Below are positions 2 through 25,594 of a stretch of DNA of 32,000 nucleotides, one piece after another. The stretch is from Delftia acidovorans NBRC 14950 (GTDB lineage Bacteria; Pseudomonadota; Gammaproteobacteria; Burkholderiales; Burkholderiaceae_C). The stretch spans positions 1 through 32,000 of the forward strand of contig NZ_BCZP01000039.1 in assembly GCF_001598795.1 (NCBI RefSeq), given 5' to 3'. The notes under the pieces are model-generated. The model searched no databases. It was not told the origin of the DNA and worked only from the letters and a program-made list of their open reading frames with translations. Numbering within the stretch: the stretch's first letter is position 1; each line of letters begins with the position of its first letter. Position numbers and translations under genes: made by a program.

Positions 2-1342
2 CTTGGCGAAGACGGCCTGGTCGGCGGCCTGCTGGGCGGCCTGGTTCCGGGCGGCGGCACAGGCAGCGGCGACGGCCTTGTCACCACAGTGCAGGACACC
101 GTTGGCGACCTGCTCGGCGGCACGGCCGGCGCCCCTGTGGGCCAGGTGCTGGACGCGCTGATCAACCCCGACACCGGCGCACTGTCCGTGGTCACGAGCC
201 TGGTGGAAGGCGTGACCCAGGTCAACGGTGGTCCGCTGGGTGTGGTGACGGACCTGGCCAACGGCCTGACGCAGGTCCCGGGCCAGGCACTGCAGCCGGT
301 GATCGGCACCGTCAACGGCGTGCTGGCCGGCCTGACGGGCGGCGATGGCTTGCTGGGTGGCGTGGTCGGCGGTGACGGCGGCCTGCTGGGTGGCCTCACG
401 GGCGGACTGACGGGCGGCCTTGGTGGCGGCTCCGGCCTGGTCGGCGGCCTGCTCGATACGGTGGTCGGCGACAACGGCATCGTTGGCGGACTGCTGGGCG
501 GCGACGGCGGCCTGCTGGGCGGCCTCACTGGCGGACTGACGGGCGGCTCCGGCCTGGTCGGCGGCCTGCTCGACACGGTGGTGGGCGACAACGGCATCGT
601 TGGCGGACTGCTGGGCGGTGACGGCGGCCTGCTGGGTGGCCTCACGGGCGGACTCACTGGGGGCCTCACTGGCGGATCGGGCCTGGTCGGTGGCCTGCTG
701 AACACCGTGACGGGCGACAACGGCATCGTCGGCGGGGTGCTCAACACCGTGGCCGGTGACAACGGCGTCGTCAGCGGCGTGCTGGACACGGTGGCAGGCA
801 ACAACGGCATCGTCAGCGGCGTGCTCGACACCGTGGCCGGTGGCAGCGGCATCGTCAGCGGCGTGGTCGACACCGTGGCGGGTGACAACGGTGTCGTCAG
901 CGGGCTGGTGAACACCGTGGCCGGCGACAACGGTGTCGTCAGCGGACTGGTCAATACCTTGGCCGGCGACAACGGAATCGTCAGCGGCGTGGTCAACACC
1001 TTGGCCGGCGACAACGGAATCGTCAGCGGCGTGGTCAACACCGTGGCCGGCGACAACGGAATCGTCAGCGGCGTGGTCAACACGGTGGCCGGCAACAACG
1101 GCATCGTCAGCGGCCTGCTGGGTGGCGGCAGCAGCGGCGGCGGCCTGCTGGGCGGGCTGCTGGGGGGATCGTCCGGCGGCGGGCTGCTCGGTGGCCTGCT
1201 GGGTGGCACATCGCACGCGGCAGCGGCCTCGGTCGCCGAGCTGGATCCGATTGCCACCTCCATCAGCAGCCATGCCAGCAGCACGGCCGATGCAGCAGCC
1301 AGCGTGCTGACGCAGCAACTGCACCACAACACCCTGCTCTGA
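2..1342 (+). CDS. Gly-rich tandem-repeat protein, 5'-truncated by the window edge (possible secreted or surface fibre; candidate T1SS cargo)
   Basis: The frame of ORF 89..1342 stays open back to nt 2 and keeps the same Gly-rich composition (LGEDGLVGGLLGGLVPGGG...), so the GTG at 89 is probably internal. It has 39-aa and 14-aa repeat blocks. The last ~50 aa lack Gly and are rich in A/S/T (HAAAASVAELDPIATSISSHASSTADAAASVLTQQLHHNTLL). Confidence 0.7.
   Translation, partial: LGEDGLVGGLLGGLVPGGGTGSGDGLVTTVQDTVGDLLGGTAGAPVGQVLDALINPDTGALSVVTSLVEGVTQVNGGPLGVVTDLANGLTQVPGQALQPVIGTVNGVLAGLTGGDGLLGGVVGGDGGLLGGLTGGLTGGLGGGSGLVGGLLDTVVGDNGIVGGLLGGDGGLLGGLTGGLTGGSGLVGGLLDTVVGDNGIVGGLLGGDGGLLGGLTGGLTGGLTGGSGLVGGLLNTVTGDNGIVGGVLNTVAGDNGVVSGVLDTVAGNNGIVSGVLDTVAGGSGIVSGVVDTVAGDNGVVSGLVNTVAGDNGVVSGLVNTLAGDNGIVSGVVNTLAGDNGIVSGVVNTVAGDNGIVSGVVNTVAGNNGIVSGLLGGGSSGGGLLGGLLGGSSGGGLLGGLLGGTSHAAAASVAELDPIATSISSHASSTADAAASVLTQQLHHNTLL
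428..1117 (+). repeat. In-frame tandem repeats inside the Gly-rich CDS: about 2.5 x 117 bp (GSGLVGGLLDTVVGDNGIVGGLLGGDGGLLGGLTGGLTG), then 10 x 42 bp (V/L-N/D-T-V/L-A-G-D/N-N-G-I/V-V-S-G-V/L)
   Basis: Direct reading. The 42-bp units run from 698 to 1117. The three units at 950-1075 differ by only 1-2 nt from each other. Confidence 0.9.
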
Positions 1343-1424: not shown

Positions 1425-1949
1425 ATGTCACACACTTTCAGGCTGTGCACCATCGTGCTGCTGGCCGCAGGGCTGGCCGCCTGCGGATCCACCGCCACCA
1501 CCAGCACGCAGCGTTCCGAGCACCACTACGCCTTCGGCAAGGCCCCGGCACCAGCGCCGGCAAGCTCCGGCGTCGCGCCCGTGGTGGCCACCACGCAGGC
1601 CGACCAGCGCGGGCCCGCCAACGTCGCCCACATCGTCTACTTCGACTTCGACGCATACACCATCCGCAACAGCGACCGGGCCATCGTGGAAAGCCATGCT
1701 CAGTGGCTGCGCAGCAATCCCGGCCGCTCGGTGATGCTGCGCGGACATACGGACAGGCGCGGCGGCATCGAATACAACCTGGCGCTCGGCCAAAAACGTG
1801 CCGACGCGGTGCGCAACAGCCTGCAGCTGCTGGGCGTGAACCCGGCCCGCGTGGAGTCCGTCAGCTACGGCAAGGAGCGGCTGGCCGACGAAGGCGCGAG
1901 CGAAGAAGCCCACCAGCGCAACCGGCGCGTGGAATTCGACTACCGCTGA
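1425..1949 (+). CDS. Peptidoglycan-associated lipoprotein (Pal)-like OmpA-domain lipoprotein
   Basis: SD aggag lies 7 nt upstream of the ATG. Lipobox LAAC|G is in the signal peptide (MSHTFRLCTIVLLAAGLAACGS). The OmpA_C/Pal core is VYFDFDAYTIRNSD...GHTDRRGGIEYNLALGQKRADAV...SYGKERL...NRRVEF, closely parallel to E. coli Pal as I remember it. Confidence 0.9.
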   Translation: MSHTFRLCTIVLLAAGLAACGSTATTSTQRSEHHYAFGKAPAPAPASSGVAPVVATTQADQRGPANVAHIVYFDFDAYTIRNSDRAIVESHAQWLRSNPGRSVMLRGHTDRRGGIEYNLALGQKRADAVRNSLQLLGVNPARVESVSYGKERLADEGASEEAHQRNRRVEFDYR

Positions 1950-1986: not shown

Positions 1987-4900
1987 ATGAAGGAACAGAT
2001 CCGCACGCGGTCGGTGCACCGCAGCCCGGCGTCCCGTCCCCACGGGAAGAGCAGCCTCCCAATGACCCTGACCGAGGCCGAGAGCATGTTGTCGCAGCAA
2101 TTGGCAAATGGCCTGGAGTACCTGGCACGGCACATGGTGCTGCTGCCCGAACCCTACCCCGGCTGCATTCTTTTCTTCACGGTGTCGGCCGAGAACAAGG
2201 TTGCCTCCGTCTTCCACGTGCGCGCCACCACGCTGGAGGCTGCCTGGCGCGAGGGTGCGACACGCGTGCGCCAATGGGCCTGGGCCCGCAAGCGTGACGA
2301 GGTCGATCTGCGCATCGACTGGGCGCAGGACATCACGCCCCTGAAGGCGGACAGTCCGCTGCCGGACTGCAGCGCCTGGACCCAGGCGCCCATGCGCTCC
2401 CTGGCCCTGGCTGATGCCAGCCTGGAGCGTACGCAGCTGCTGCAGCCCCTGCTGCCAGATCCGCACCCGCTGGGCAGTGAAACAGGCAGCGCCCAACGGC
2501 CCCTGCACCCGCCCTGCCTGCTGCTGCACCTGCGCGGCATCTATATCAGCGGGGAGCAGCCCGCCCTGGCCGTGCCGCGCACCGACCCGCCCGAGCAGCG
2601 CCTTTGGCCCCACCTCGTGCCCGTGCACGCTGCGCTGCAGCAACTGCTGGCGCAGCAGGGCAAGGACGGAAGCTGGCCCGGTTGCGGGGATGTCTGCGAC
2701 CACCTGGGCGTGACCTACGCCCTGCTGCAGGCCCAGCGCCATGCGGGCAGCGCCGCGCTGGCGCAGGCCATTGCGCTGGCCGTGGACCATGTGGAGCAAC
2801 GGCTGCAGCCATTGCCCGGCGACTGTCTGCCCAGCGCGCTGGCCATGCTGGTGCTGGCCCGCCACCTGCGCAACAGCTTTGTCCTGGGGCCGGGAGCCGA
2901 CAGCCAGGCCCGCGCCCACATTCCGGCGCTGATGGACCCGCTGGCGGAAAGCCTGCTGTCCATGGCTGCCGCTTCGGCCAGCACCACCAAGGCTGCCGCC
3001 GCTGCCGCCAATGCCGCTGAAGCCGGCACACCCCGCTCCGGCCAGCCCATGCTGACCTGGGCCGAGCTGGCCATGCATGTCTATGCAAGCTCGCGCCCCC
3101 CCACCAGCGACAGCCCCACGCTGCGCGCGGCGCGCAGCGCCCTGCCCGACACGGCGGCCCTGCCTGCCGCCTTCCTGCAGGCCGCGCTGCCGCAGCTGCT
3201 GGGCATGGATGGCGGCAATGACGGCAATGGCGGCAATGGCGACGATGGCGACGATGGCGAAAGTATCGAGAAGGCAGGCGCCCTTTGTGCACGCTGGATA
3301 GGCATTGCCCTGGTCGAGAGCCTGCAGCTCGACGCAGGCCTGGAGCCGCAGCCCACCGACCTGCTGCGCCAATGGCAGATCAGCCTGCAGCGCCATCTGC
3401 AAGGCATGGCCCAGCGCGCCATCTGGCCTGAGCAGGCGCTGTACCTGCCGCCCGCCCGGCGCCGCCATGCAGCCTTTACCGATGGCAGCCTGCGCCAGGT
3501 ACTGCAGTCCCCGCGCGAAATCGCCTGGCTGCTGGCATCCAGCCTGGCAGGCCTGGAACTGCTGGACGCTCTGACCCAGGCACTGCGCGCGGCCACCAGC
3601 CATGCCGCTGCCGAATCCGGGGAAGACGCGCTGCCTGCGCAGGCAGGCCATGGCTTGAGCGCGGGTGCCAGCCCTGCCAAAGCTTCCCCGCCCTCGCCAT
3701 CACTCTCCCTCGCGTCGCGGGCCGATGAGACTGCGGGCCAGCCGGCTTTTCGGCCCACAGCGGGCTCCATGTACCCGCCCATGTCCTGGGACAGAGCTTC
3801 CCTGGCCGAACTGATGAACGGGTGCTGGCTGGATGCAACGACAGAGCCCGGCACAGATCCCAGCTCCGATAGCGGCACCGGCTGCGCGGGATTGGACGCC
3901 AGCCGCCTGCACCACCAGCCCGGCGCCGCCGTGCTGGTGCGGCGTGCGGGCATGGCCCTGGGCGTGCAGGCTGCGGCCCTGCCCACGCTGCGCGCCTCGG
4001 CGCTGATCAGCAGCAGCCCGCAGGGCCTGCTGGACCACGGCGTGCCGGTGCTGCATGTGCCTGATATGGAAGAGGGCCTGCGCAATCTGGCGCAGGCGGC
4101 CCGCCGCCGCATCCAGTCGCCCGTGGTCGCCGTCAGCGGCTGCGTGGGCAAGACCTCCACCCTGGGCATGATGCGCCAGTGCCTGCAGGACGGGGGAGAC
4201 GCGCGTGGCGATGCCCTGCTGTCCCAGGGCACGGCGCTGCAGATGATCAATTGGAGCGAGGCCTCGCCCTGCGCCCTGCTGGAGCTGCCATTGCAGGCAC
4301 TGCGTGCCGACCTGCCGCTGATTGACCCAGATATTCTGGTTATTACTAATCTTTCAATAAATAACACCCCCTATTCAGGGGAGTCCGAGCCCTCCGGACA
4401 GGCCGGTCTGTCCGGTGAAAGAAAATACGAAGCATTGCAGGAAGTGCTTGAAGCCATGCAGCTCATGCACAAAGGCAGTGCGCTGGTCACCGATCAGGAC
4501 ATAGGTGAAAACCCCAGTGTTATTGAGCATGCCAAACGCATGGGACTGCGCCTGATCACGTTTGGCCCCCATTGCAATGCACAGGTCCGTGAAATGGGGT
4601 TTCACAATGGAAATCTGCAAATAGGCATGGGCAGCCTGCGCCTGGGCATTTCCCTGCAATCCGACGGCCACCACATGGCACTCAATGCGCAGGCGGCCCT
4701 GGCGGCCCTGCATGCATTGGGCTATGCGCCCGCACAGGTGCAGGCCTCCCTGGCCCATTGGCAGCCCATGATCGGAGCCGGGCAGCCGCAGCTCCTGCCC
4801 AGTGGAATCTGCCTGCTGGACCACAGCCTGAGCAACCACTTACTGTCCATGACGGCTGCATTTTCCCAGCTGCAGTCGGTCGCTCCCCATGTGAGCAGAA

Positions 4901-5277
4901 GGCTGATCGTGCTGGCGGGCATACAGCCCGGCCACGCCAGCATCGACGCTGCGCAGCTGGCCCTGGAGCCGCTCGTGCGGGATGCCCAGGCCCGGCGCGT
5001 GCTGCTGTATGGGGAGCCGCTCAGGCCGCTGGCGGCAGCCTTGGGCGATCTTTTGCACGTCAATTGGTATGACGATCTGAATCAGCTGATTTGCTCGCTG
5101 CTGAGAACAACCCATAAAGGCGATACGGTTTTGTTGGCCGGCCGCGCCACAACCAATCTTGCCCTGGCGGCCGACGCCATACGGGATAGTTTCAGTGGCC
5201 ACGGGGGCCATTTAATAGCGTCTATTCAGGCTCCCTGCTTTGATCCACATCAAAAACAAATGAACATGCATTCTTGA
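1987..5277 (+). CDS. Large fusion protein: unknown ~630-aa N-terminal region plus a divergent MurF-like (Mur ligase family) C-terminal module
   Basis: A single open frame of 1096 aa with good high-GC codon usage in its first two thirds. The C-terminal part is colinear with MurF: GLDASRLHHQPGAAVLV, VPVLHVPDMEEGLRNLAQAARRR, P-loop VVAVSGCVGKTST, GHHMALNAQAALAALHALG and LLDHSLSNHLLSMTAAF. The start is uncertain (ATG 1987 or ATG 2062). Confidence 0.7.
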   Translation: MKEQIRTRSVHRSPASRPHGKSSLPMTLTEAESMLSQQLANGLEYLARHMVLLPEPYPGCILFFTVSAENKVASVFHVRATTLEAAWREGATRVRQWAWARKRDEVDLRIDWAQDITPLKADSPLPDCSAWTQAPMRSLALADASLERTQLLQPLLPDPHPLGSETGSAQRPLHPPCLLLHLRGIYISGEQPALAVPRTDPPEQRLWPHLVPVHAALQQLLAQQGKDGSWPGCGDVCDHLGVTYALLQAQRHAGSAALAQAIALAVDHVEQRLQPLPGDCLPSALAMLVLARHLRNSFVLGPGADSQARAHIPALMDPLAESLLSMAAASASTTKAAAAAANAAEAGTPRSGQPMLTWAELAMHVYASSRPPTSDSPTLRAARSALPDTAALPAAFLQAALPQLLGMDGGNDGNGGNGDDGDDGESIEKAGALCARWIGIALVESLQLDAGLEPQPTDLLRQWQISLQRHLQGMAQRAIWPEQALYLPPARRRHAAFTDGSLRQVLQSPREIAWLLASSLAGLELLDALTQALRAATSHAAAESGEDALPAQAGHGLSAGASPAKASPPSPSLSLASRADETAGQPAFRPTAGSMYPPMSWDRASLAELMNGCWLDATTEPGTDPSSDSGTGCAGLDASRLHHQPGAAVLVRRAGMALGVQAAALPTLRASALISSSPQGLLDHGVPVLHVPDMEEGLRNLAQAARRRIQSPVVAVSGCVGKTSTLGMMRQCLQDGGDARGDALLSQGTALQMINWSEASPCALLELPLQALRADLPLIDPDILVITNLSINNTPYSGESEPSGQAGLSGERKYEALQEVLEAMQLMHKGSALVTDQDIGENPSVIEHAKRMGLRLITFGPHCNAQVREMGFHNGNLQIGMGSLRLGISLQSDGHHMALNAQAALAALHALGYAPAQVQASLAHWQPMIGAGQPQLLPSGICLLDHSLSNHLLSMTAAFSQLQSVAPHVSRRLIVLAGIQPGHASIDAAQLALEPLVRDAQARRVLLYGEPLRPLAAALGDLLHVNWYDDLNQLICSLLRTTHKGDTVLLAGRATTNLALAADAIRDSFSGHGGHLIASIQAPCFDPHQKQMNMHS

Positions 5278-5376
5278 TTGAATAAAACTTATAGAGGGCT
5301 GTATATAACTCGCTACAGTGTTTGTGAAACGAGTACCTTTACATTTTGTAAAGATGCTTACTAAGCCCATCAGAAC
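5278..5376 (+). promoter_or_regulatory. AT-rich intergenic region, likely promoter region for the T1SS operon
   Basis: It is about 35% GC in a ~68% GC background. A possible -35 TTGAAT (5278-5283) sits 18 nt from TATATA (5302-5307). No strong SD precedes the ATG at 5377. The hexamer assignment is tentative. Confidence 0.35.
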
Positions 5377-7239
5377 ATGATCCGATACCTTCTTCCCCGT
5401 CAGTTGGCCAAGGCCACGGCGATGCCGTCGGGAACGGAGACGGTGGGGGCTTTTGCATCTGCCATCGCCGAGTCCTTCGACCGGGCTGCGCACCAGTTGC
5501 GCCGGGCTGGCTGGCTGTCGCTGCCCATCAGTCTGCTGGGCCTGCTGCCGTCCATCTTCCTGCTGCAGGTCTACAACCGCGTCATTGCGCGTGGCGGCAC
5601 CGCCACCCTCACGGCCATGGTGGCGGGCGTGCTGTTCTTCCTGGGCGTGGAATGGTGGCTGCGGCGCAGGCGCGCCCGCGCCCTGCGCGAAGCCGGCGCC
5701 ATGATCGACCGCGATGTGTCCCAGGCGCTGATGCACTCCATGCTGCGCCACCCGCTGGCCGCGCTGGAGCAGCGCTCCTCCAGCCAGTGGCTGCAGCTGT
5801 TCCGCGACGTGAGCGCCATGCGCTCGGGCATGTCCGGGGGCCTGGCGACCTCGCTGCTGGACCTGCCCATGGCCCTGCTGGCACTGGTCGTCATCGGCAT
5901 CATTGCCTGGCCCGTGCTGCCGGTGATTCTGGTGGCCATGCTCATCATGGGCGTGCTGGCCTGGTGGTGGGCCGACGAGGTGCGCAGCGGCCGCGTGGAG
6001 GAAATCGCCCAGGCCCGCATGCTGGACCGGGGCACGGCCGAGATCTGCAACGCCCGCGCCACGCTCAAGGTGCTGGGCTACGACGCCGCCGCACGCCAGA
6101 ACTGGCAAAGCGGCTATGACCGCTGGCTGGCCGAGAGCTTTGGCAAGAACGGCGAGATGGAAAACGCACGCGAGGCCAGCACCGTGCTGCTGACGCTGTT
6201 CTCCATTGCCGTGATCACCGTGGGCGCCATTGCCATCAATGCGCAGTGGATGAGCATCGGCAGCCTGATGGCCGTGAACCTGCTGTCGGGCAAGGCGCTG
6301 GGCCCCATCTCGCAACTGGCCAGCAACTGGCGCTCGCTGGCCCATGCCAACGAGGCCGCACGCCGCCTGCAGGCCGTGCTGGAGGAACCCGTCGAGGCCA
6401 TGACCGACACCGTGGACCTGCCCCGGCCCCAGGGCCGGCTGCGCCTGGACCAGGCAAGCTTCCACTACCCGGGCGGCCATGTGGCGCTGGAGCAGGCATC
6501 GCTGGAGATCGGCCCCGGCGGGCTGCACGCCATCGTGGGGCGCAACGGCGCCGGCAAGTCCACCCTGGCCAAGCTGCTGGCCGGCCTCTACCAGCCCACA
6601 CAGGGGCGCATCTTCATCGATGAATACGACATGGCCCAGTTCCCGCGCGCCGAACTGGGCCGCTGGATAGGCTGCCTGGCCCAGCAGGTGTACTGGTTCA
6701 GCGGCCCCATCGTGGACGGGCTGCGCATGGTCAACCCCGATGCCGACGACCACAAGATCGTCACCGCCTGCCAGATCTCGGGCGCGCACGGCTTCATCAG
6801 CCGCCTGCCCCAGGGCTACCAGACGGTGCTGGGCGAAGGCGGCGCGGGCCTGTCGGCCGGCGAGCTGCGCAAGCTGGCCCTGGCCCAGCTGTTCCTGCGC
6901 AACCCCTCGGTGCTGATCCTGGACGAGCCCAGCAACGACCTGGACTTCGAGAGCGAAACCACGCTGCTGCAGACGCTGCGGCAGATTGCGCTCAAGCACA
7001 CGGTCATCGTCGTCACGCACTCGCTGCGCGTGGCCTCCATGGCGCAGCATCTCTACCATGTGCGCGGCGACGGCGGCATCGAGCATGGCTCGCCCCAGTT
7101 GCTGCTGCCCCAGCTGTTCGGCTCGGCGCGCGAGCCTGCGGCTCCCGCAGCACCCGCTGCGTCCACAGCCCCCGCAACGCCGGCCGACCCGGCCCCGCAT
7201 GCCGATCACCCCGCCGTGGCGCAGGAGCTTGCCTCATGA
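5377..7239 (+). CDS. Type I secretion system permease/ATPase (PrtD/AprD-like ABC exporter, no N-terminal C39 or C39-like domain)
   Basis: A short cytoplasmic N-terminus leads into LLPSIFLLQVYNRVI (T1SS ABC hallmark LQVYDRVL-like). Walker A is GRNGAGKST, the signature is LSAGELRKLALAQ and Walker B is VLILDEPSNDLD. There is a Pro/Ala-rich C-terminal tail. Confidence 0.93.
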   Translation: MIRYLLPRQLAKATAMPSGTETVGAFASAIAESFDRAAHQLRRAGWLSLPISLLGLLPSIFLLQVYNRVIARGGTATLTAMVAGVLFFLGVEWWLRRRRARALREAGAMIDRDVSQALMHSMLRHPLAALEQRSSSQWLQLFRDVSAMRSGMSGGLATSLLDLPMALLALVVIGIIAWPVLPVILVAMLIMGVLAWWWADEVRSGRVEEIAQARMLDRGTAEICNARATLKVLGYDAAARQNWQSGYDRWLAESFGKNGEMENAREASTVLLTLFSIAVITVGAIAINAQWMSIGSLMAVNLLSGKALGPISQLASNWRSLAHANEAARRLQAVLEEPVEAMTDTVDLPRPQGRLRLDQASFHYPGGHVALEQASLEIGPGGLHAIVGRNGAGKSTLAKLLAGLYQPTQGRIFIDEYDMAQFPRAELGRWIGCLAQQVYWFSGPIVDGLRMVNPDADDHKIVTACQISGAHGFISRLPQGYQTVLGEGGAGLSAGELRKLALAQLFLRNPSVLILDEPSNDLDFESETTLLQTLRQIALKHTVIVVTHSLRVASMAQHLYHVRGDGGIEHGSPQLLLPQLFGSAREPAAPAAPAASTAPATPADPAPHADHPAVAQELAS

Positions 7240-8612
7240 GGGCCGGGCGCTACGACGACCTCCCCCTGGTGCTTCGCCAGTCAAGCGAAGCGCAGGCAGC
7301 CGTGCACGGCCAGCCGCCTGCGGACGCGTCCGGCGCAACGCCCCCCACCCCTGGCCGAACCGCCCTGGCGCGGGGCAAGTGGCTGCTCGTCATTCCCGTC
7401 GCCGCCCTGGTGGTCACCGGCCTGTTCTATCCGGTGGAGAACGTGGTGGTCGCCAGCGGCCAGGTCATCCCTTCCGACCGTGTGCAGACCGTGCAGCATC
7501 TGGAAGGCGGCATCGTCACCGCCGTCCATGTGCGCGAAGGCCAGGCCGTGACCCAGGGCCAGCCGCTGCTGGAAATCGACCTGGGCAGCAACAGCCTCAA
7601 CCTCGAACAGCTCACCGCCCGCATGGCCACGGCCCAGGCCGTCAAGGCGCGTCTGGGTGCGGAAAGCCAGGGCCGGCCGCTGCAGCGCACCGCCTTCCCC
7701 GCCGACCTGGACGCACAGGTGGTCCAGGCCGAACTGGGCGCCTTCTCGGCGCGCGCGCTGGAGCACCAGGGCAGCCTTGCCGCAGCCCAGGCCCAGCTGC
7801 AGCAGGCGCGCGGCGACGTGGCCCAGGTGCAGGCGCGCATCGAGGGGCTGGAGACCAATCTGCGCCTGCACCAGCAGGAGGCCTCCATTGCCGGCCAGCT
7901 CGCCTCCGAGCAGCTGATAGGCCAGCTTGAAGTGCTGGACAAGCAGCGGGCGCTGGAGCAGGTGCGGGCCGAGCTGGCTGCCTCGCGCCAGACGCTTTTC
8001 AGCAACCGCGCCAAGATCGAACAGGCCCAGGCCAAGCTGCAGGAGACCCAGGGCGCCTTCCGCCGCCGCGCCTCCGACGAGCTGGCCCAGACCGAACGCG
8101 AGCTGGCCAGCCTCAACGAAGACCTGGTCCGCGCCCGCACCCAGCGCACGCGCACGGCCGTGCTGGCGCCCACCAGCGGCTTCGTCAAGGGCCTGCGCAG
8201 CTCGGGCGCCGGTTGGGTGGTCAAGCCCGGCGAGCCCATCCTCGAAATCGTTCCGGACAAGGACGAAGTCATCGTCGAGGCGCGCCTGAGCCCCGCCGAC
8301 CGTGGCTATGTGCGCCCCGGCCAGGCCACCCGGGTGAAGATCTCGGCCTACGACTTCCTGCGCTACGGCTCGGTGCCCGGCCAGGTCACCCTGGTGGCGG
8401 CCGATGCCGACCGCGATCCCAACCTGGCCGACTCGCCCTCGTACTTCCGCATCCAGGCCAGCCTGGAGCAGCCCTGGGTGGGCCGCACCGACAACCGCAT
8501 CACCACCGGCATGCAGGCCGAACTCGACCTGCTGCTGGGCCACGAACCCTTTATCTGGTATTTGCTGCGGCCCGTGCTGCGCATCCAGAGCGAAGCCTTC
8601 CGGGAGCCCTGA
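7236..8612 (+). CDS. HlyD-family type I secretion membrane fusion (periplasmic adaptor) protein
   Basis: ATGA start/stop overlap with the ABC gene. It has a single N-terminal TM helix, the motif VQHLEGGIV...V.EGQ.V..GQPLLEID, a long coiled-coil middle region, and C-terminal APTSGFV...ARLSPADRGYVRPGQATRVKISAYDF. Confidence 0.93.
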   Translation: MRAGRYDDLPLVLRQSSEAQAAVHGQPPADASGATPPTPGRTALARGKWLLVIPVAALVVTGLFYPVENVVVASGQVIPSDRVQTVQHLEGGIVTAVHVREGQAVTQGQPLLEIDLGSNSLNLEQLTARMATAQAVKARLGAESQGRPLQRTAFPADLDAQVVQAELGAFSARALEHQGSLAAAQAQLQQARGDVAQVQARIEGLETNLRLHQQEASIAGQLASEQLIGQLEVLDKQRALEQVRAELAASRQTLFSNRAKIEQAQAKLQETQGAFRRRASDELAQTERELASLNEDLVRARTQRTRTAVLAPTSGFVKGLRSSGAGWVVKPGEPILEIVPDKDEVIVEARLSPADRGYVRPGQATRVKISAYDFLRYGSVPGQVTLVAADADRDPNLADSPSYFRIQASLEQPWVGRTDNRITTGMQAELDLLLGHEPFIWYLLRPVLRIQSEAFREP

Positions 8613-10348
8613 TGCCAGGCCGCCCGACCTCCCCTTCCATGGGCTGGCACGCCCGCTGCCACGCCCGGCTGCGCCAGCTGCTGGCCGCTGCCTGCTGCCT
8701 GTCCGCACTGCAGGCGCTGCAGGCCGCTGCCGCGCCTGTGGCTGCGGCGGACAGGGACCTTGATACGGACATCGGCATGGTTGCCGCAGCCGCACCCGCA
8801 CCCGCATCCACATCCGCAAACACGGCCGCAGCCGCACCGGCCCCTGTGGTCCTGCGCCTGGCCCAGCACCTCACGCCCGGCACCCTGGCCAGCGACGGCG
8901 GGCAGCGCCGCCTGCTCGATGCCCTCTACGCCCTGATCGACGAATACCCCGACGTGCGCAAGGCGCGCGCCGCGCTGGAATCGGCCGGGCATGACGTGAA
9001 CACCGCGCGCGGCGCGCGCTGGCCCACCTTCAAGGTGGGTACCAACACGGGCGATGCCAAGCTGCGCCGGGGCCGCGAGTCCTACACCGCCGTCAACGCC
9101 GAAGTGCGCATGGCCCTGCTGGACGGCGGCGCCATCGGCGCGGGCATACGCTCGGCCGAATCGCAGGAGGCGGCCCAGGGCAGCGTGCTCTACGGCACGC
9201 GCCAGAACGTGCTGCTGGAGGCGCTGACCGCCCTGCTGGAGCTGCACCGCTTCGAGGACAAGGCCCGCGTGGCGGCCGAGTCGGCGCGCATCATCGGCCA
9301 GCTCGCGCGCATCGAGGAGCGCCGCGCCGAACTGGGCGCCGTGGGCCGCAACGACCTGCGCCAGGCCGCCTCGCGCCAGGCCGGCGCCCTGGCCCAGCAG
9401 CATGCGCTGGAGTCGCAGCGCATGGATGCGCAGGCCCGCTTCACGCGCTACTTCGGCTTCACGCCCCAGCCCGGCTGGCTGCCCCAGCTCAACGTGCCCG
9501 TGCAATGGATGCCGGCCAACGAGGACTCGGCCCTGCAGGCCTCCGAAACCGTCAGCCCCGAGCTGCAGGAGATGGAGCAGCAGATCGAGAAGGCCCGCGC
9601 CGAAGTGGACCGCAGCAAGTCCCAGCGCTTTCCCACGCTGGCCGCCGTGGTGGCCCACACGCGCGACCCCAGCGGTGTGCTCTATGCCGAGGGCACGCGC
9701 TACGGCGTGGAGCTGAGCTGGAACTTCGGCAACGGCTTCGAGCTGCGCGACCGCATCCTCAAGGCCATCAACGAACTGCAGGCCCAGGAAGCGCAGCAGG
9801 AAACCGTGCGCCGCCAGGTGCGCGAAACCGCCTCCGCCGCCTGGGGACGCACCCAGTCCGGCCGCCAGCGCGAAAGCCAGCTGGCCGACGCCGTGCGCGA
9901 GGCGCGCGCCGCCTTCGAGGGGCGCCGCCGCCTGCTCGAAGTCGGGCGCGGCAGCCTGGCCCAGGTGCTGGACGCCCAGCTGGACATGCAGCGCCTGCTG
10001 CTGGACGAGGCCGACGCCATCTACGACCAGCGCATCAACGAACTGCGCCTGGCACGCACCACCGGCCGCCTCCTGCCGCAGGACCCGCCCGATCAATGGC
10101 TGAACGCGCTGTTCACCCCGCAAAAACCGATTCCGGCAGGTGGTGGTGCGCCAGGCACTGCCCCCATGGACGAGCCCGGGAACGCGCCCGGCCCTGCGCC
10201 CTCGCGCAGCCGCCCCGAACCCCAGGACGCTGCCGTGGCCACCCTGTCCGCCAGCGCCATGCCCCAACGAATACAGCTGCGCCTTGAGCAGCAGTTGCGC
10301 CCCGTTTCAGACGCTTTTCCAACCACCGCCTTGCGACAGCAGTGGTGA
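8612..10348 (+). CDS. TolC-family outer membrane factor of the T1SS
   Basis: TGATG overlap with the HlyD gene. It has a signal-like N-terminus and two OEP-type repeats (…ARAALESAGHDVNTARGARWPTF… and …ARAEVDRSKSQRFPTLAAVV…). A Pro/Ala-rich C-terminal extension of about 90 aa follows. Confidence 0.88.
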   Translation: MPGRPTSPSMGWHARCHARLRQLLAAACCLSALQALQAAAAPVAAADRDLDTDIGMVAAAAPAPASTSANTAAAAPAPVVLRLAQHLTPGTLASDGGQRRLLDALYALIDEYPDVRKARAALESAGHDVNTARGARWPTFKVGTNTGDAKLRRGRESYTAVNAEVRMALLDGGAIGAGIRSAESQEAAQGSVLYGTRQNVLLEALTALLELHRFEDKARVAAESARIIGQLARIEERRAELGAVGRNDLRQAASRQAGALAQQHALESQRMDAQARFTRYFGFTPQPGWLPQLNVPVQWMPANEDSALQASETVSPELQEMEQQIEKARAEVDRSKSQRFPTLAAVVAHTRDPSGVLYAEGTRYGVELSWNFGNGFELRDRILKAINELQAQEAQQETVRRQVRETASAAWGRTQSGRQRESQLADAVREARAAFEGRRRLLEVGRGSLAQVLDAQLDMQRLLLDEADAIYDQRINELRLARTTGRLLPQDPPDQWLNALFTPQKPIPAGGGAPGTAPMDEPGNAPGPAPSRSRPEPQDAAVATLSASAMPQRIQLRLEQQLRPVSDAFPTTALRQQW

Positions 10349-10453
10349 AGTGAGAAGCGGCAAGTGAGGTTTCCCGTGCAGCGGCCGGCTTCTGCCCATC
10401 GCCAGCCGCCGCCATCGAAAACGATGGGCTTTTGCAACCGAAAGGACGATGCC

Positions 10454-10630
10454 ATGACCGACATCATCAAGAACTTCTGGAAAGACGAAGAAGGCGCCAC
10501 CGCCATCGAGTACGGCTTGATCGCCGGCCTCATCGCCGTGGGGATCGTGGTGGGCGCCACCGCGCTCGGCACCAACCTGAATGGGCTGTTCACCCGGATC
10601 GCCACCAAGCTCACCGGCTTCGTTCCCTGA
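10454..10630 (+). CDS. flp: Flp-family type IVb pilin (copy 1)
   Basis: 58 aa: MTDIIKNFWKDEEG|ATAIEYGLIAGLIAVGIVV... This is the canonical Flp motif with a G|ATAIEYGLIA cleavage site. SD aaagga lies upstream. I chose an internal ATG within the longer track ORF 10364..10630. Confidence 0.9.
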   Translation: MTDIIKNFWKDEEGATAIEYGLIAGLIAVGIVVGATALGTNLNGLFTRIATKLTGFVP

Positions 10631-10721
10631 GCGCCGGCTGCGGCGCGATCTGGCCGGGCTCGGGCGGGGCTTGCCTCCGCCCCCGGCGCCAAGGCATTTT
10701 GCAAACCGAAAGGACCATGCC

Positions 10722-10898
10722 ATGACCGAAATGATCAAGAACTTCTGGAAAGACGAGGAAGGCGCCACCGCCATCGAATACGGGCTGATCGCCGGCCTGA
10801 TTGCCGTGGGCATCGTCGTGGGCGCCACCGCGCTGGGTACCGATCTGAACGGATTGTTCAGCCGGCTTGCCACCAAGCTCAACGGACTTGCCCCCTGA
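10722..10898 (+). CDS. flp: Flp-family type IVb pilin (copy 2)
   Basis: 58 aa: MTEMIKNFWKDEEG|ATAIEYGLIAGLIAVGIVV... It differs from copy 1 at 8 of 58 positions, in the leader and the C-terminal third. The leader DNA is the same as upstream of copy 1. Confidence 0.9.
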   Translation: MTEMIKNFWKDEEGATAIEYGLIAGLIAVGIVVGATALGTDLNGLFSRLATKLNGLAP

Positions 10899-10900
10899 AG

Positions 10901-11470
10901 ATGGAGTGGACCTCGCTATGGCTGTGCGTCTGCATCACATGGCTCGCAACGATTGCGGTCATGGATCTGCGCATCCGGCGCGTGCGCAACTGGATGGTGC
11001 TGCTCGGCCTGGCCACAGGCGCGGCGGCACTGGCCAGTGGGGCGCAGCCGTTCCAGGTCTCGGCCTGGAACGCGCTGGCCGGACTGCTGGCGGGGTTTGT
11101 CGTGCTGCTTCCTTTCTATGCACTGCGCTGGATGGGAGCGGGCGACGTCAAGTTCGGCGCGGTCGCAGGGCTGTGGTTCGGGCTGAGCTTCGACCTGCTG
11201 CTGATCTGGACCGGCGGCAGCCTGCTGGCCGGCCTGCACGGCCTTCTGGTGCTGTCATTGCGCCACCTGAGCCACAGCCCCACCGGCCTGTGGCTGCAGG
11301 CCCGGCTGCCCCTGGCCTGGGCGGCCCGCCTGGCACCCCTGGGCGCGGCGTCTCAGCCCGCAGGCGCCACCGATGGACCGCGCCAGCCCCAGCGCTCCAT
11401 TCCCTATGCCGGCTACATGGCCATTGCGGCCATCGCCCTGGCCTGGCGCCACAGCCAGCCGCTTGCCTGA
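10901..11470 (+). CDS. cpaA: Prepilin peptidase CpaA/TadV (A24 aspartic peptidase)
   Basis: A polytopic membrane protein with the two catalytic-Asp contexts VMDLRIRRVRN and MGAGDVKF. It lies immediately after the flp genes. Confidence 0.88.
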   Translation: MEWTSLWLCVCITWLATIAVMDLRIRRVRNWMVLLGLATGAAALASGAQPFQVSAWNALAGLLAGFVVLLPFYALRWMGAGDVKFGAVAGLWFGLSFDLLLIWTGGSLLAGLHGLLVLSLRHLSHSPTGLWLQARLPLAWAARLAPLGAASQPAGATDGPRQPQRSIPYAGYMAIAAIALAWRHSQPLA

Positions 11471-11558
11471 ACGGGAGATGCCCATGCAGATCGCTTTCCC
11501 CTCGCCACGCACCACACGGCCCGGCCCCGCCGCAAGCCGCCGCTGTGCGCTATCCGGA

Positions 11559-11603
11559 CGCTTTCCTGCCCTGGCGGACCCTCTGCGCCATGGCAGGAAA
11601 GCG
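11559..11603 (+). other. Strong intercistronic stem-loop between cpaA and cpaB
   Basis: CGCTTTCCTGCC (11559-11570) pairs perfectly with GGCAGGAAAGCG (11592-11603). After one C/T mismatch, TGGCG/CGCCA adds 5 bp around a 9-nt loop. A competing pairing is GCCCTGGCG (11568-11576) with CGCCAGGGC (11602-11610). There is no U-tract. Confidence 0.6.
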
Positions 11604-11662
11604 CCAGGGCAGCCCCCATGCCTGAACACCGTCGCCACCCACTTGCACCAGGAGCCCCAGCC

Positions 11663-12709
11663 ATGAACCTCACCAAGATTCTTGCCGGACTGTTGGTTGG
11701 GCTGGCCATCGTGCTCGCAGGCCTTGCCTGGCTGCTGGGCAGCCAGCCCGCACGCCCCGTGGCCCAGCCCTCACCGACCGCCTCGGCGCAGCCGGCCCCA
11801 GAGCCCGTGCCGCAGCATGCCGTCGTGGTCGTGGCCCAGGCCATTGCCGCAGGCCAGCGCATCGGCAGCGAGGATGTGAAGCTGGCCCAGCTGCCCGCCC
11901 CCGTACCCGGCAGCTTTGCCGCGACCGATGACGTGCTGGGCCGCACCACGCTGATGGCGCTCACCCCGGGCACTCCGCTTTTCGAGCAGCAACTGCTCAG
12001 CGGCCTGGCCCTGCAGCTGGAGCCGGGACAGCGCGCCCTGGCGATTGCCATCCGGGAGCAGATGGCCGCGGGCCACCATGTGCGCCCCGGCGACTTCGTG
12101 GATGTCTACTTCACGCTGGACGGCAAGTCCGACCAGGCACCCGTGGACGCGCAGACCCGGCTGCTGCTGGCGCGCAGCCGCGTGCTGGCCTACGGCTCCG
12201 GCAGCGTGGAACGCCCACCCATGCCGGCCGTCCAGCGCCAGGCGCAGCAGGACAAGGAATCGGCCGGCTCGTCGCTGCGCCGCGCCAGCGCTGCGGATCA
12301 GACCGGCCAGCGCCCTGAGAACGTGCAATCGGCCGTGCTGGCCGTGCCGCTGGACGATGTGGAGCGCCTCACCCTGGCCGAGAAATTCGGCCAGCTCACC
12401 TTGGCGCTGCGCAACCCGGACGACCTGTCCGTGCCCGATCCCAAGCTCTTCGCCGCCCTGCCCAGCGCACTGCAGCCGGTGGCGGGCCGCCTCCGGAAAG
12501 ACCAGGCACTGGAGGGTGCAGACCGCGCCTTCGCCGGCCTTCGCATGCAGGACCTGGCCACCGGCGCCGACGCCAAGAACATCCGCAAGCCTGCCGCCCA
12601 GCCCATGACGGCCTTCGCACCCGCCGTGCGGCCGCCGCCGCAGCGGGCCCCGCGCGAACGCACCGTGGAGCTGCATAACGGAGCCGCGGTGCAGATGGTG
12701 AACTACTGA
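11663..12709 (+). CDS. cpaB: Flp pilus assembly protein CpaB/RcpC
   Basis: SD aggag lies 8 nt upstream of ATG 11663. It has an N-terminal TM anchor (MNLTKILAGLLVGLAIVLAGLAWLL), a SAF-like segment (VVVVAQAIAAGQRIGSEDVKLAQLP) and a position upstream of the secretin. Confidence 0.85.
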   Translation: MNLTKILAGLLVGLAIVLAGLAWLLGSQPARPVAQPSPTASAQPAPEPVPQHAVVVVAQAIAAGQRIGSEDVKLAQLPAPVPGSFAATDDVLGRTTLMALTPGTPLFEQQLLSGLALQLEPGQRALAIAIREQMAAGHHVRPGDFVDVYFTLDGKSDQAPVDAQTRLLLARSRVLAYGSGSVERPPMPAVQRQAQQDKESAGSSLRRASAADQTGQRPENVQSAVLAVPLDDVERLTLAEKFGQLTLALRNPDDLSVPDPKLFAALPSALQPVAGRLRKDQALEGADRAFAGLRMQDLATGADAKNIRKPAAQPMTAFAPAVRPPPQRAPRERTVELHNGAAVQMVNY

Positions 12710-14253: not shown

Positions 14254-15801
14254 ATGACAAGCAAGCCCACCGCAACCGATTCGCCTGTGGACGCCACAGG
14301 CTCGCCGGCCATCGGCTCACCCACCTCGCTGGAGACCCTGCTGGGGCTGCGTTCCTCGGCCTCGCTGGCCGGCAAGCCGCAGCCCGGCACCGATGCGCTC
14401 GCGCAGGACAAGTCACCGCTTGCGCAGGACAAGTCACCGCTTGCGCAGGACAGATCACCGCTTGCACAGGACAAATCACCACTGGACAGGATGACCGCGC
14501 CCGCCGCGCCCCGCCCGACGCCGCAGCCGCTCGACAACGACCTGCAGGTGGAGCTGCTCTTCATCCACGCAGGCACCCCCGAAAGCTCGCTGGCCCAGGC
14601 CTGGCTGCAGCACATGCTGGACGGCGCACGGCTGCATGTGGCGCGGTTCCAGGACAACGTCACCGATCAGGTGCAGCGCTACATGCCGCATGCCGTGCTC
14701 GTGCATTTCGACCCGCTGTCCACCGACGAGGCGGCCCACCTGGCCTCCCAGCTGCACATCTCCCACCCCCACCTGCCCTGCCTGGCCGTGGGCCGCACCA
14801 AGTACCCGCAGTGCATGCTGGCCGCGCTGCGCGCCGGGGTGCAGGACTTCCTCGACGTGGACGGCCCCGTGCAGGCCGCGCACCAGACGGTGATCGATCT
14901 GATCAAGCGCGTGCCCCCGTCGGCCTCGGGCATGCCCAACGCGCCGCTGACCGCCATCATGTCGGCCCGCGCCGGCCTGGGCAGCAGCCTCATGGCATCG
15001 CACCTGGCCTGGTACCTGCAAAAGCGCCTGCATGGCACGACGGCCGTGCCGGGCAAGGACGCCACGCCCCGCGAGATCAGCAACGAGACGCTGGACGGCC
15101 TGCTCATCGACCTGGGCTTTCCCAGCGGCGACTGCGGGCTGTACCTGGGCACGCTGGGAGACTTCGACTTCATCGAAGCCGTCAACAACCTGCGCCGCTT
15201 TGACCGGCGCCTGGCATCGACGGGACTGGCCCGCCATGAAAGCGGCCTGCGCCTGCTCACGCTGCCGCGCCAGCCCGCCCGCCTGCGCGACGTCTCCTAT
15301 GCCGATGCCGACGCGCTGCTGCTGCGCCTGCGCCAGTACTTCCGCCACATCGTGGCCGACCTGGGGGCCGTCGTGCCCACGCAGCTGGCCATGCGCGTGG
15401 CGCTGCGCGCCAGCCAGATCTGGGTGGTCTGCGACCAGAGCGTGGCCAGCGTGGTCTCCACCACCGAGCTGCTGCGCCAGCTCGACGAGCAAAAGGTCGA
15501 TCGCGAGCGCGTGCAGCTCATCGTCAGCCGGCACGACAGCCAGCTGGAGCTGGAGGCCCCGCAGATCGCCAGGCAACTGCAGCTGCCGCTGCTGGCCACC
15601 ATTCCCGAGCGCCGGCGCGAACTGGTCCAGGCCGTCAACCAGGGCCAGCTGCTGCCCAGCCGGCTGCAGCGCGAGCCCTATGTGCAGGCCGTGGACAAGC
15701 TCGCCACCTTGCTGATCACCACCCACCACCAGGCCCATGCGGGCGATCAGGCCGCGCCCGCCCGGGGCCTGAACCGTTTCTTCCACCGAACAAGAAGCTG
15801 A
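14254..15801 (+). CDS. tadZ: TadZ/CpaE-like pilus localisation protein (receiver-like domain plus degenerate ParA/MinD-type ATPase domain)
   Basis: The position and architecture fit TadZ. The REC-like segment is VELLFIHAGT...AVLVHFDP...LRAGVQDFL. The P-loop position reads IMSARAGLGSS rather than KGGxGK[ST]. The start is uncertain: ATG 14491 is an alternative that would exclude the low-complexity N-terminus. Confidence 0.78.
   Translation: MTSKPTATDSPVDATGSPAIGSPTSLETLLGLRSSASLAGKPQPGTDALAQDKSPLAQDKSPLAQDRSPLAQDKSPLDRMTAPAAPRPTPQPLDNDLQVELLFIHAGTPESSLAQAWLQHMLDGARLHVARFQDNVTDQVQRYMPHAVLVHFDPLSTDEAAHLASQLHISHPHLPCLAVGRTKYPQCMLAALRAGVQDFLDVDGPVQAAHQTVIDLIKRVPPSASGMPNAPLTAIMSARAGLGSSLMASHLAWYLQKRLHGTTAVPGKDATPREISNETLDGLLIDLGFPSGDCGLYLGTLGDFDFIEAVNNLRRFDRRLASTGLARHESGLRLLTLPRQPARLRDVSYADADALLLRLRQYFRHIVADLGAVVPTQLAMRVALRASQIWVVCDQSVASVVSTTELLRQLDEQKVDRERVQLIVSRHDSQLELEAPQIARQLQLPLLATIPERRRELVQAVNQGQLLPSRLQREPYVQAVDKLATLLITTHHQAHAGDQAAPARGLNRFFHRTRS
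14401..14484 (+). repeat. 4 x 21-bp tandem repeat encoding (AQDKSPL)4 in the tadZ N-terminal region
   Basis: gcgcaggacaagtcaccgctt occurs twice exactly. A third copy has 1 substitution and a fourth copy is more diverged. Confidence 0.95.
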
Positions 15802-24114: not shown

Positions 24115-24164
24115 ACGGCAGGCAAGGCCATCCAATCCATGAATCGACAACGAGGGAATGCAAC

Positions 24165-25559: not shown

Positions 25560-25594
25560 GCACGCCCTCCGACACATCCCCATCCCCCCACGCC

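Follow-up and report, generated by a model that had tools for sequence, protein, structure and literature searches.

The cyanophycin synthetase CphA1 combines an ATP-grasp domain, a Mur-ligase-like M domain, and an N domain that holds the polymer, and its Mur-type ligase acts on the Asp side-chain carboxylates of that polymer. SdgA and SdgB are glycosyltransferases whose targets are the Ser-Asp repeats of adhesins from staphylococci. Work on the BapA/LapF type of biofilm adhesin covers Paracoccus, Acinetobacter, Agrobacterium, Burkholderia, Pseudomonas, and Salmonella, and we know of no function for the enormous Asp-Ala or Asp-Ser spacers of these proteins. BapA of P. denitrificans carries 891 Asp-Ala repeats and shows anomalous gel mobility; its authors did not exclude modification, and drew an analogy to SD-repeat adhesins (PMC5588039). 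The Acinetobacter "beta-BAPs" carry SD or AD repeats, according to a paper that also cites the work on SdgA and SdgB (PMC4647330). We describe here a gene from Delftia acidovorans NBRC 14950, located in the first 32,000 nucleotides of contig NZ_BCZP01000039.1 from assembly GCF_001598795.1 (this whole stretch is called the window below), that fuses an N-terminal module (N-module) of ~550 amino acids (aa) to a MurF-like half, in an island that also encodes a likely giant adhesin and a type I secretion system (T1SS), along with a Tad pilus. Its product is probably a member of the Mur superfamily that has become a pseudoenzyme, in a new architecture and a new genomic context.

Compared with MurF itself (TIGR01143; structures 4cvm, 1gg4, and 4qf5), the C-terminal half is colinear over ~470 aa, adopts the same three-domain fold, and shares the P-loop, the Mg-site Glu, the GxH..N motif, and the first Asp of the DD motif. 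It differs in scoring far below the family cutoff, in lacking the His, carbamyl-Lys, Arg, DSYNAN, and KGS elements, in following a 560-aa N-terminal module, and in being encoded in a T1SS adhesin operon rather than a dcw cluster. Closest by BLAST are "Mur ligase family" proteins that likewise pair the N-module with a MurF-like half beside T1SS adhesin genes and likewise carry GxHMALN, either as fusions (Agrobacterium pAt plasmid, WP_272448214.1; Sulfitobacter, WP_243263253.1) or as split pairs (Nitratireductor, Kluyvera). These keep all Mur motifs, pass Pfam thresholds, retain the N-module invariants, and accompany (Asp-Ala)n adhesins, whereas the Delftia clade does none of these things; no characterized member was found in the literature. 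CphA1 is a conceptual parallel, combining ATP-grasp and Mur modules as do the giant Alcaligenes proteins described below, but the N-terminal modules are unrelated by sequence and the putative substrate here would be a ribosomally made (Asp-X)n protein. SdgA and SdgB show that enzymes encoded next to adhesins can modify dipeptide-repeat spacers, and N-module-glycosyltransferase fusions likewise adjoin (Asp-Ser)n proteins; these enzymes belong, however, to other protein families, and Delftia has a predicted dead ligase and an adhesin with no Asp-X dipeptide repeat. HlyC-type enzymes may offer a further parallel, as cytoplasmic accessories encoded in a T1SS operon that act on the cargo before export, but HlyC is a small acyltransferase with no homology to this protein, and modification here is only putative. 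Finally, the polymerase entry 8r6s_Q, which we take to be the MurE-like PAP11 subunit of plastid-encoded RNA polymerase, appears among Foldseek matches and places a Mur-ligase fold in a non-ligase structural role, although PAP11 is eukaryotic and plastid-located, has other partners, and lacks an N-module.

A preliminary description of the window, made from its letters and open reading frames (ORFs), had called the C-terminal part a MurF paralog. Fold and profile comparisons bear this out, although sequence scores are weak. The NCBIfam murF model TIGR01143 matches aa 670-1052 with an E-value of 9e-21, yet at 74.3 bits against a cutoff of 288.6; PRK14093 scores 76.3 bits against a cutoff of 544, and both Pfam Mur_ligase_M (PF08245, 17.2 bits) and Mur_ligase_C (PF02875, 25.1 bits) fall below their gathering (GA) thresholds of 24 and 28.4. 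In phmmer searches against solved structures, Pseudomonas aeruginosa MurF (4cvk) is matched at E 3.6e-9 and Escherichia coli MurF at E 1.7e-5. When the AlphaFold2 (AF2) model is searched with Foldseek, MurF structures come out on top, with 4cvm at E 8e-18 and 4qf5 at a target TM score of 0.72. The Mur-ligase homology is weak by sequence and clear from fold and profile. The intact relatives encoded beside adhesins, by comparison, lie well above the Pfam GA thresholds (88-99 bits for the M model, 57-70 bits for the C model). By BLAST, the Delftia half scores 113 bits against the adhesin-associated Mur ligase of Kluyvera, while MurF fragments taken from the phmmer alignments (288 and 344 aa) score 43 bits for P. 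aeruginosa and 31 bits for E. coli, and it is nearer to the adhesin-associated ligases than to the MurF fragments compared. Some databases nevertheless name homologs UDP-N-acetylmuramoyl-tripeptide--D-alanyl-D-alanine ligase.

The status of the catalytic motifs was judged from an alignment of the intact Kluyvera, Nitratireductor, and Agrobacterium ligases with the Delftia clade. All of the motifs quoted in the preliminary description are present: VVAVSGCVGKTST (P-loop, aa 712-725), ITNLSINNTPYSG, GHHMALNAQAALAALHALG, LLDHSLSNHLLSM, LLAGRA, and QQGKDGSWPG. We took the seven Mur invariants to be those equivalent to MurC K130, E174, H199, N293, N296, R327, and D351, with the carbamylated Lys in addition, and the roles of these residues are those established by mutagenesis and structural work on MurC and MurD. 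By this measure K722, E766, N900, and D945 are kept, while the His, the carbamyl-Lys (the TK of intact relatives), and the Arg are lost, as are DDSYNAN beyond its first Asp and KGS. The erosion of catalytic motifs noted earlier is confirmed on this alignment, but not for the change from HN to HM: the equivalent of MurC N293 is Met in the intact adhesin-associated ligases too, so GHHMALN is a signature of the subfamily rather than a sign of decay. The clade has also acquired invariant motifs of its own, LQMINWS, GxGQP, and LLDHS. On this alignment, residues for the second Mg2+ and for the acyl-phosphate or tetrahedral intermediate are gone, and those of the nucleotide site remain.

The N-terminal region had been described as ~630 aa that could be assigned to nothing. 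Its boundaries and its relationships can now be stated better: the module ends near aa 545, with a disordered linker after it, and the region is a degenerate copy of a large, unannotated module of ~550 aa that is predicted to consist of an alpha/beta domain and a six-hairpin helical domain. Compared by hhalign over 314 columns, an alignment of the Delftia clade and one of five canonical N-modules matched with a probability of 99.5% (E 4e-22). When 1.8 billion representative proteins were screened with a profile of aa 35-548, there were 81 matches, comprising the full-length family, stand-alone forms of ~500 aa, and, more distantly, the N-termini of proteins of 900-2400 aa; the alpha/beta portion, domain A, is the part present in all of these distant fusions. 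Domain libraries are silent here: Pfam and NCBIfam return nothing for the N-terminal 500 aa, even at E<=5. Degeneration is extensive. Only 18 of 134 canonical invariants are kept in the Delftia clade, and the motif blocks KRNYFR, YG..PCF, EI.LG.NA, IYYDGEA, and RIDD have been deleted wholesale. The QQGKDGSWPG segment, earlier thought to recall alpha/alpha-toroid repeats, aligns to Q..G.F.YG of the canonical module, and both its invariant residues and the six-hairpin barrel predicted around it agree with that suggestion. With Foldseek, the helical domain finds GH76, epimerase, and C4 thioester-domain (TED) barrels at probabilities of 0.9-0.98, although with weak E-values of ~0.05.

A short segment of the canonical module around FWPE.AMYF (~436-516; aa 437-528 in protein P0124) shows a borderline match to YceG/MltG: PDB entry 2r1f at E 0.003, the only PDB match of the canonical profile and a short one, and NCBIfam YceG PRK10270 at E 1e-3 in P0124. 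The WPE.A motif (WPEQALYLPP, aa 477-490 of the window protein) is among the few that the Delftia clade retains. Nothing in the interpretation below is built on this match.

The fusion gene is real, conserved, and under purifying selection. The closest relatives of the proteins in the window belong to the D. acidovorans group, at 96-81% identity, and the full architecture is common to 22 protein clusters from Delftia, Comamonas, and Corticibacter, drawn from independent assemblies and reaching down to 38% identity, which disposes of the possibility that two separate genes were joined by a sequencing or assembly error. The frame of 3.2 kb remains open across these genera, and dozens of its residues are invariant. 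Relative to D. acidovorans MMO-42, dN/dS is 0.24 for the whole gene; by part it is 0.26 (domain A), 0.28 (helical domain), and 0.18 (MurF-like half), against 0.06-0.11 for the adjoining ABC, HlyD, and OmpA genes. Cross-genus identity is 31-61% for the parts of the fusion protein versus 60-84% for the OmpA and T1SS (ABC, HlyD, TolC) proteins, and the fusion gene evolves 3-4 times faster than its neighbors.

Homologs begin at MTLTEAES or MLSQQL, the first 25-34 codons of the listed ORF are unconserved, and a GAGG lies 8 nt upstream of the ATG at 2089, which makes 2062 or 2089 the probable true start. The protein lacks both a signal peptide and a transmembrane segment (maximum 19-aa hydropathy, 1.46), and is predicted to be cytoplasmic. 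Its full-length AF2 model (mean predicted local distance difference test score, pLDDT, 71) has four parts: an alpha/beta domain at aa 28-200, a helical domain at 207-543, a linker at 541-593 that is disordered, and a Mur-like region of three domains at 600-1067. The 9-bp repeat reported earlier at 3211-3261 is genuine, although its position is 3209-3259; the loop that it encodes is disordered in the model and varies in length among strains. P0001, at 96% identity, has one 9-bp unit fewer, and other Delftia proteins have an unrelated loop. The G+C content of the window is ~70%, and two patches depart from the background of ~0.70. One, at 4300-4599, falls to 0.53 and takes in the degenerate TNxxxH loop together with what follows it; the other, at 5200-5499, falls to 0.49 and spans the C-terminal tail, the gap between the genes, and the beginning of the ABC gene.

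The gene lies outside any dcw/mur context, between a Pal-like lipoprotein gene and a T1SS, as first described, and the same holds in all loci; fusion, Pal, and T1SS genes occur together in every full Comamonadaceae locus. Delftia, Comamonas, Corticibacter, and Acidovorax share one gene order in their full loci: adhesin, OmpA/Pal, fusion gene, ABC, HlyD, TolC, Flp, prepilin peptidase, RcpC, secretin, and the rest of Tad. Four loci lack the MurF-like half, so that the N-module stands alone in an otherwise intact island: one in Acidovorax sp. CCYZU-2555, two in metagenome-assembled genomes (MAGs) of Comamonas, and one on an unassigned metagenome contig (L007). The adhesin spacers of Delftia and Comamonas are (PTN/PTD)n or (TDN)n rather than Asp-X dipeptides. 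Within Comamonadaceae, spacer type does not predict the presence of the MurF-like half, as PT(N/D) spacers occur both with and without it.

Far from being unique, the architecture recurs widely beside adhesin genes. The canonical N-module profile recruits more than 1,046 proteins, mostly stand-alone forms of ~554 aa from Enterobacteriaceae, Variovorax, and others, to which databases give names such as Mur ligase, GH88, and GH127. No Pfam or NCBIfam model covers the module, and NCBIfam is empty on the canonical stand-alone forms as well. In the giant proteins, Pfam domains that follow the N-module include PGA_cap (CapA-like), Mur_ligase_M/C, several ATP-grasp families, acylphosphatase, S11 peptidase, and glycosyltransferases GT1 and GT2. 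N-modules are found beside giant adhesins, mostly of the T1SS BapA type, in Alpha-, Beta-, and Gammaproteobacteria, Staphylococcus, and Listeria, and of 17 canonical loci, 13 (all but L006, L023, L025, and L033) have a protein with Asp-X dipeptide repeats as a neighbor. Fusion of N-module and Mur ligase occurs independently in Agrobacterium and Sulfitobacter. Among these relatives the Comamonadaceae clade is the degenerate branch of the adhesin-associated module/ligase family. Literature searches on Mur ligases in connection with T1SS, adhesins, BapA, or pseudoenzymes, and on ATP-grasp proteins in connection with T1SS or BapA, brought up nothing about the N-module/ligase family.

Individual loci illustrate the pattern. 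An Alcaligenes locus (L005) encodes TolC, a BapA/LapF-type adhesin with ~480 Asp-Ala repeats, ABC, HlyD, and a 1731-aa protein in which the N-module precedes three ATP-grasp domains (YheC/D and two ATP-grasp) and an acylphosphatase. In a second locus with the same flanking genes (L022), the slot holds a 2208-aa protein of N-module, PGA_cap, Mur ligase, and ATP-grasp, beside (Asp-Ala)742; the flanking genes sit at the same coordinates in both, with the catalytic cassette swapped behind a constant N-module. An Agrobacterium pAt plasmid (L027) encodes TolC, a BapA-family adhesin with (DA)~300, ABC, HlyD, and an N-module fused to a Mur ligase (named "Mur ligase family protein"); Nitratireductor (L026) has the same order, with split, overlapping genes for the N-module and "murF" and a (DA)~230 protein, while in Sulfitobacter (L030) the fusion lies beside a (DA)n protein with a BapA prefix and T1SS genes. 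In Kluyvera (L024), a Mur ligase gene is divergent from that of the N-module, followed by LapG, LapD, and (DS)n and (DA)108 proteins. Klebsiella aerogenes (L031) has "Clumping factor" (SD-repeat) fragments, TolC, ABC, HlyD, and an N-module-glycosyltransferase named "tagE"; one metagenome locus (L008) joins N-module, PGA_cap, and GT1 beside a (DS)~267 protein, and another metagenome contig (L009) also shows the N-module in an adhesin/T1SS neighborhood. Acinetobacter (L029) encodes a T1SS-target adhesin, an N-module, and a CapA-like ORF. Among Gram-positives, a Staphylococcus lugdunensis plasmid (L028) has a Rib-domain LPXTG-type adhesin (LPDTG, with a DSDSDA tail), an N-module, and a fragmented Mur ligase, and in a Listeria monocytogenes record (L032, 7603-11506) a (DA)~158 ORF lies directly upstream of the N-module. 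E. coli genomes yielded only three plasmid copies of a glycosyltransferase fusion.

Two loci, L025 (Variovorax, 7688-11701) and L023 (14946-16771), place canonical N-modules beside an APH-type kinase and a nucleotidyltransferase (NTP-transferase), or an aminotransferase and an NTP-transferase, gene pairs reminiscent of AmgK/MurU-type pathways for sugar-1-phosphates and nucleotide sugars; in neither can an adhesin be seen within 10 kb. Downstream of the Alcaligenes-type giants (L005, 15228-17848; L022, 16624-19233; L009, 11306-14080) are encoded a conserved, putative HExxH metalloprotease of ~310 aa, which matches the MXAN_6640 family at E 9e-12, and a protein of ~560 aa that contains long hydrophobic stretches and matches no family. 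These two may be further members of the system.

On balance, we believe that the Delftia protein would be a nucleotide-binding, non-ligating accessory of the adhesin/T1SS/Tad island, kept as a docking or holding factor, and we infer ligase loss, nucleotide binding, and docking alike. Its ancestor would have been a two-part enzyme, an N-module with a MurF-type ATP-dependent carboxylate-amine ligase, of the kind encoded in many bacteria beside (Asp-Ala)n or (Asp-Ser)n adhesins. In Comamonadaceae both halves have degenerated. The N-module keeps its predicted fold and few invariants; the MurF-like half keeps nucleotide-binding residues (Lys722, Glu766, His896/Asn900, and Asp945) but has lost His, carbamyl-Lys, Arg, DDxYNAN, and KGS, the elements by which an acyl-phosphate would be made and resolved. 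Such a protein would bind, and perhaps hydrolyze, nucleotide but carry out no ligation, and would be retained under purifying selection to dock on or hold the low-complexity spacer of the adhesin, or the T1SS, before export. The preliminary description had offered either a repurposed ligase or a non-catalytic module. The evidence favors the non-catalytic alternative for this clade, because intact relatives keep every Mur motif, the clade has lost five, and the half is deleted in four loci.

Several points weigh against this interpretation. Within the gene it is the MurF-like half that purifying selection constrains most, a sign that this half does something, and the new invariant residues M897, Q933, and H946 make an altered active site conceivable. 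The docking or holding role is proposed from synteny, and the loss of ligation is deduced from residue roles established for MurC and MurD. Confidence in the AF2 models is moderate (pLDDT 71 and 77), and the fold matches of the N-module are weak, with E about 0.05.

The first two of these points also bear on a different proposal, that the protein has remained an active ATP-dependent amide ligase, its site remodeled and its substrate new; it might, for example, join an amine to the (PTN/PTD)n adhesin, either at carboxylates derived from Asp or Asn or at the C-terminus. Invariant residues include the P-loop, Glu766, H896/N900, and D945, M897, Q933, and H946 are newly so, the MurF-like half has the lowest dN/dS in the gene (0.18), and its nearest relatives resemble active ligases beside adhesins. 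We nonetheless judge continued ligation unlikely: the positions of the His and carbamyl-Lys lie within a loop that is variable, disordered, and low in GC, the Arg, DDxYNAN, and KGS motifs have all been replaced, the partner N-module is degenerate too, and four sister loci dispense with the whole half. Those same deletions, in Acidovorax, two Comamonas MAGs, and one unassigned metagenome contig, together with evolution 3-4 times faster than that of neighboring genes and the internal low-GC patches, are what would be expected of a functionless relic carried inside the operon and on its way to being lost. That explanation seems less probable still, as dN/dS of 0.18-0.28 is not near 1 and a 3.2-kb frame with dozens of invariant residues has stayed open across genera down to 38% identity. 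Slightly lower again we place a sensor, whose MurF-like half would bind UDP-MurNAc-peptide or ATP and make adhesin export or Tad expression depend on how well cell-wall precursors are supplied. The retained MurF N-domain and nucleotide-site residues, the adjoining peptidoglycan-binding OmpA lipoprotein, and the non-enzymatic precedent of the Mur fold in a plastid RNA polymerase subunit (8r6s_Q) are consistent with it, but the protein has no regulatory output domain, and clade members that lack the MurF-like half keep the same island. That the gene is a housekeeping murF, the name some databases give its homologs, or an artifact of assembly joining two genes, we reject as having next to no chance of being correct, given 74 bits against 288.6, missing catalytic residues, and a T1SS rather than dcw context in the one case, and the same fusion in many independent assemblies and genera in the other.

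For the family at large, the loci suggest, tentatively and from synteny only, that canonical N-modules and the Mur-type ligases, ATP-grasp ligases, CapA-like domains, or glycosyltransferases fused to or paired with them make up an undescribed system for post-translational modification of giant adhesins; we would put this somewhat short of an even chance. In the cytoplasm, the N-module would recognize the (Asp-Ala)n or (Asp-Ser)n spacer, ligases would form amides on Asp carboxylates in a cyanophycin-like manner, and glycosyltransferases would glycosylate Ser, all before export by the T1SS in Gram-negatives or by Sec and sortase in Gram-positives. The Delftia protein would then be a catalytically dead descendant, still docking on adhesin or T1SS after the spacer had changed to (PTN/PTD)n.

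Table 1. Features of the adhesin/T1SS/Tad island and of the fusion gene, in coordinates of the window
Feature	Position	Strand	Evidence or remark
Giant adhesin gene, 3' part	2..1342	+	Frame open from base 2, leaves window at left edge; likely T1SS cargo
Pal/OmpA-family peptidoglycan-binding lipoprotein	1425..1949	+	Pfam OmpA E 3.5e-23; NCBIfam Pal_lipo 122.6 bits
Fusion ORF	1987..5277	+	Uninterrupted, 1096 aa as listed; true start probably 2062 or 2089
N-module domain A, aa 35-205, alpha/beta, with RQWAWAR and LRIDW motifs	2089..2601	+	AF2 models; hhalign
N-module helical domain, aa 206-545, predicted degenerate alpha/alpha six-hairpin barrel	2602..3621	+	AF2, predicted TM score (pTM) 0.80
QQGKDGSWPG, QxxxGxW-type toroid motif	2653..2682	+	Q224, G228, W230 invariant
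9-bp tandem repeat	3209..3259	+	Tandem Repeats Finder (TRF), 5.7 copies; encodes Gly/Asn/Asp loop
Ala/Pro/Ser-rich disordered linker, aa 546-598	3622..3780	+	pLDDT <50; unalignable among homologs
MurF-like three-domain module, aa 599-1068	3781..5190	+	NCBIfam, phmmer, Foldseek
P-loop, retained (TGSAGKTT in intact relatives)	4132..4161	+	G718, G721, K722 invariant
Glu766, Mg-site Glu of Mur ligases, retained	4282..4284	+	Invariant; aligns to IELG / LE(I/L)A
Degenerate TNxxxAHL region	4342..4422	+	His replaced, carbamyl-Lys position lost; loop variable, disordered
GHHMALN subfamily signature	4666..4686	+	H896, N900 kept; GxHMALN in intact relatives
GAGQP (clade GxGQP) replacing PGR(G)E	4774..4788	+	Arg lost
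LLDHS replacing (I/L)DD(S/A)YNAN (IDDAYNANP in intact relatives)	4813..4827	+	First Asp, D945, kept, remainder lost
LLAGRA replacing (V/F)KGS(R/H) (FKGS in intact relatives)	5131..5148	+	KGS lost
T1SS ABC exporter without N-terminal C39/CLD domain	5377..7239	+	NCBIfam LssB-type E 2e-108, model positions 147-671
HlyD-family T1SS adaptor	7236..8612	+	TIGR01843 327.8 bits, above cutoff
TolC-family outer-membrane component	8612..10348	+	Orthologs 533-582 aa, starting at end of HlyD gene
Two tandem Flp pilin genes	10454-10630, 10722-10898	+	Followed by Tad pilus locus

The repeat protein encoded upstream is likely an adhesin and the cargo of the T1SS (Table 1). Its 3' part within the window encodes 14-aa Gly-rich repeats and matches Pfam LbR_Ice_bind at E 6.5e-15. 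A full-length ortholog is available in D. acidovorans MMO-42 (L010, 4406-9259), laid out as an N-terminal domain, a hydrophobic segment that resembles a transmembrane helix (GGSVLSDFLLAGLIGAGGVGLIAAA), a (PTN/PTD) spacer of ~90 units, repeats of ~110 aa, the 14-aa Gly-rich repeats, and a non-repetitive C-terminus. Its N-terminus matches no Pfam or NCBIfam model, and its layout resembles that of BapA-type adhesins. The Pal/OmpA lipoprotein is kept in every Comamonadaceae locus. A terminator scan found no terminator-like site between the OmpA gene, the fusion gene, and the ABC gene, and a promoter scan found no sigma-70 match.

Downstream, the TTG start listed for TolC at 8213 lies 400 nt inside the HlyD gene, and the ATG at 8612 or 8639 is probably the true start. 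From either ATG the protein has an N-terminus resembling a signal peptide and the length of its orthologs, and the ATG at 8612 overlaps the HlyD stop by 1 nt, as in Comamonas. The tandem Flp genes, which are near-identical, lie between TolC and prepilin peptidase, where Comamonas and Corticibacter loci show one. A 515-aa ORF at 14254-15801, between secretin and a CpaF-like ATPase, has no Pfam match at E<=1e-4; Tad gene order would presumably place a CpaE/TadZ-type protein there. The 903-aa ORF at 24158-26869 was considered as a second N-module and rejected (hhalign probability 0.03). Only its last ~415 aa (start near 25616) belong to GT4, and its first ~486 codons are an Arg/Ala/Gly-rich, out-of-frame overlap with the ORF at 23262-25559.

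Labels such as "Mur ligase," "murF," "tagE," and "GH88/GH127" that databases attach to these proteins are misleading, both for annotation and for inventories of MurF inhibitor targets. The recurrent adhesin neighborhood, from Alphaproteobacteria to Staphylococcus and Listeria, provides a concrete set of candidate enzymes for modification of adhesin spacers. Within that set, the Delftia gene would be a natural "dead" variant that separates docking from catalysis, a bacterial Mur-ligase fold kept as a probable pseudoenzyme.

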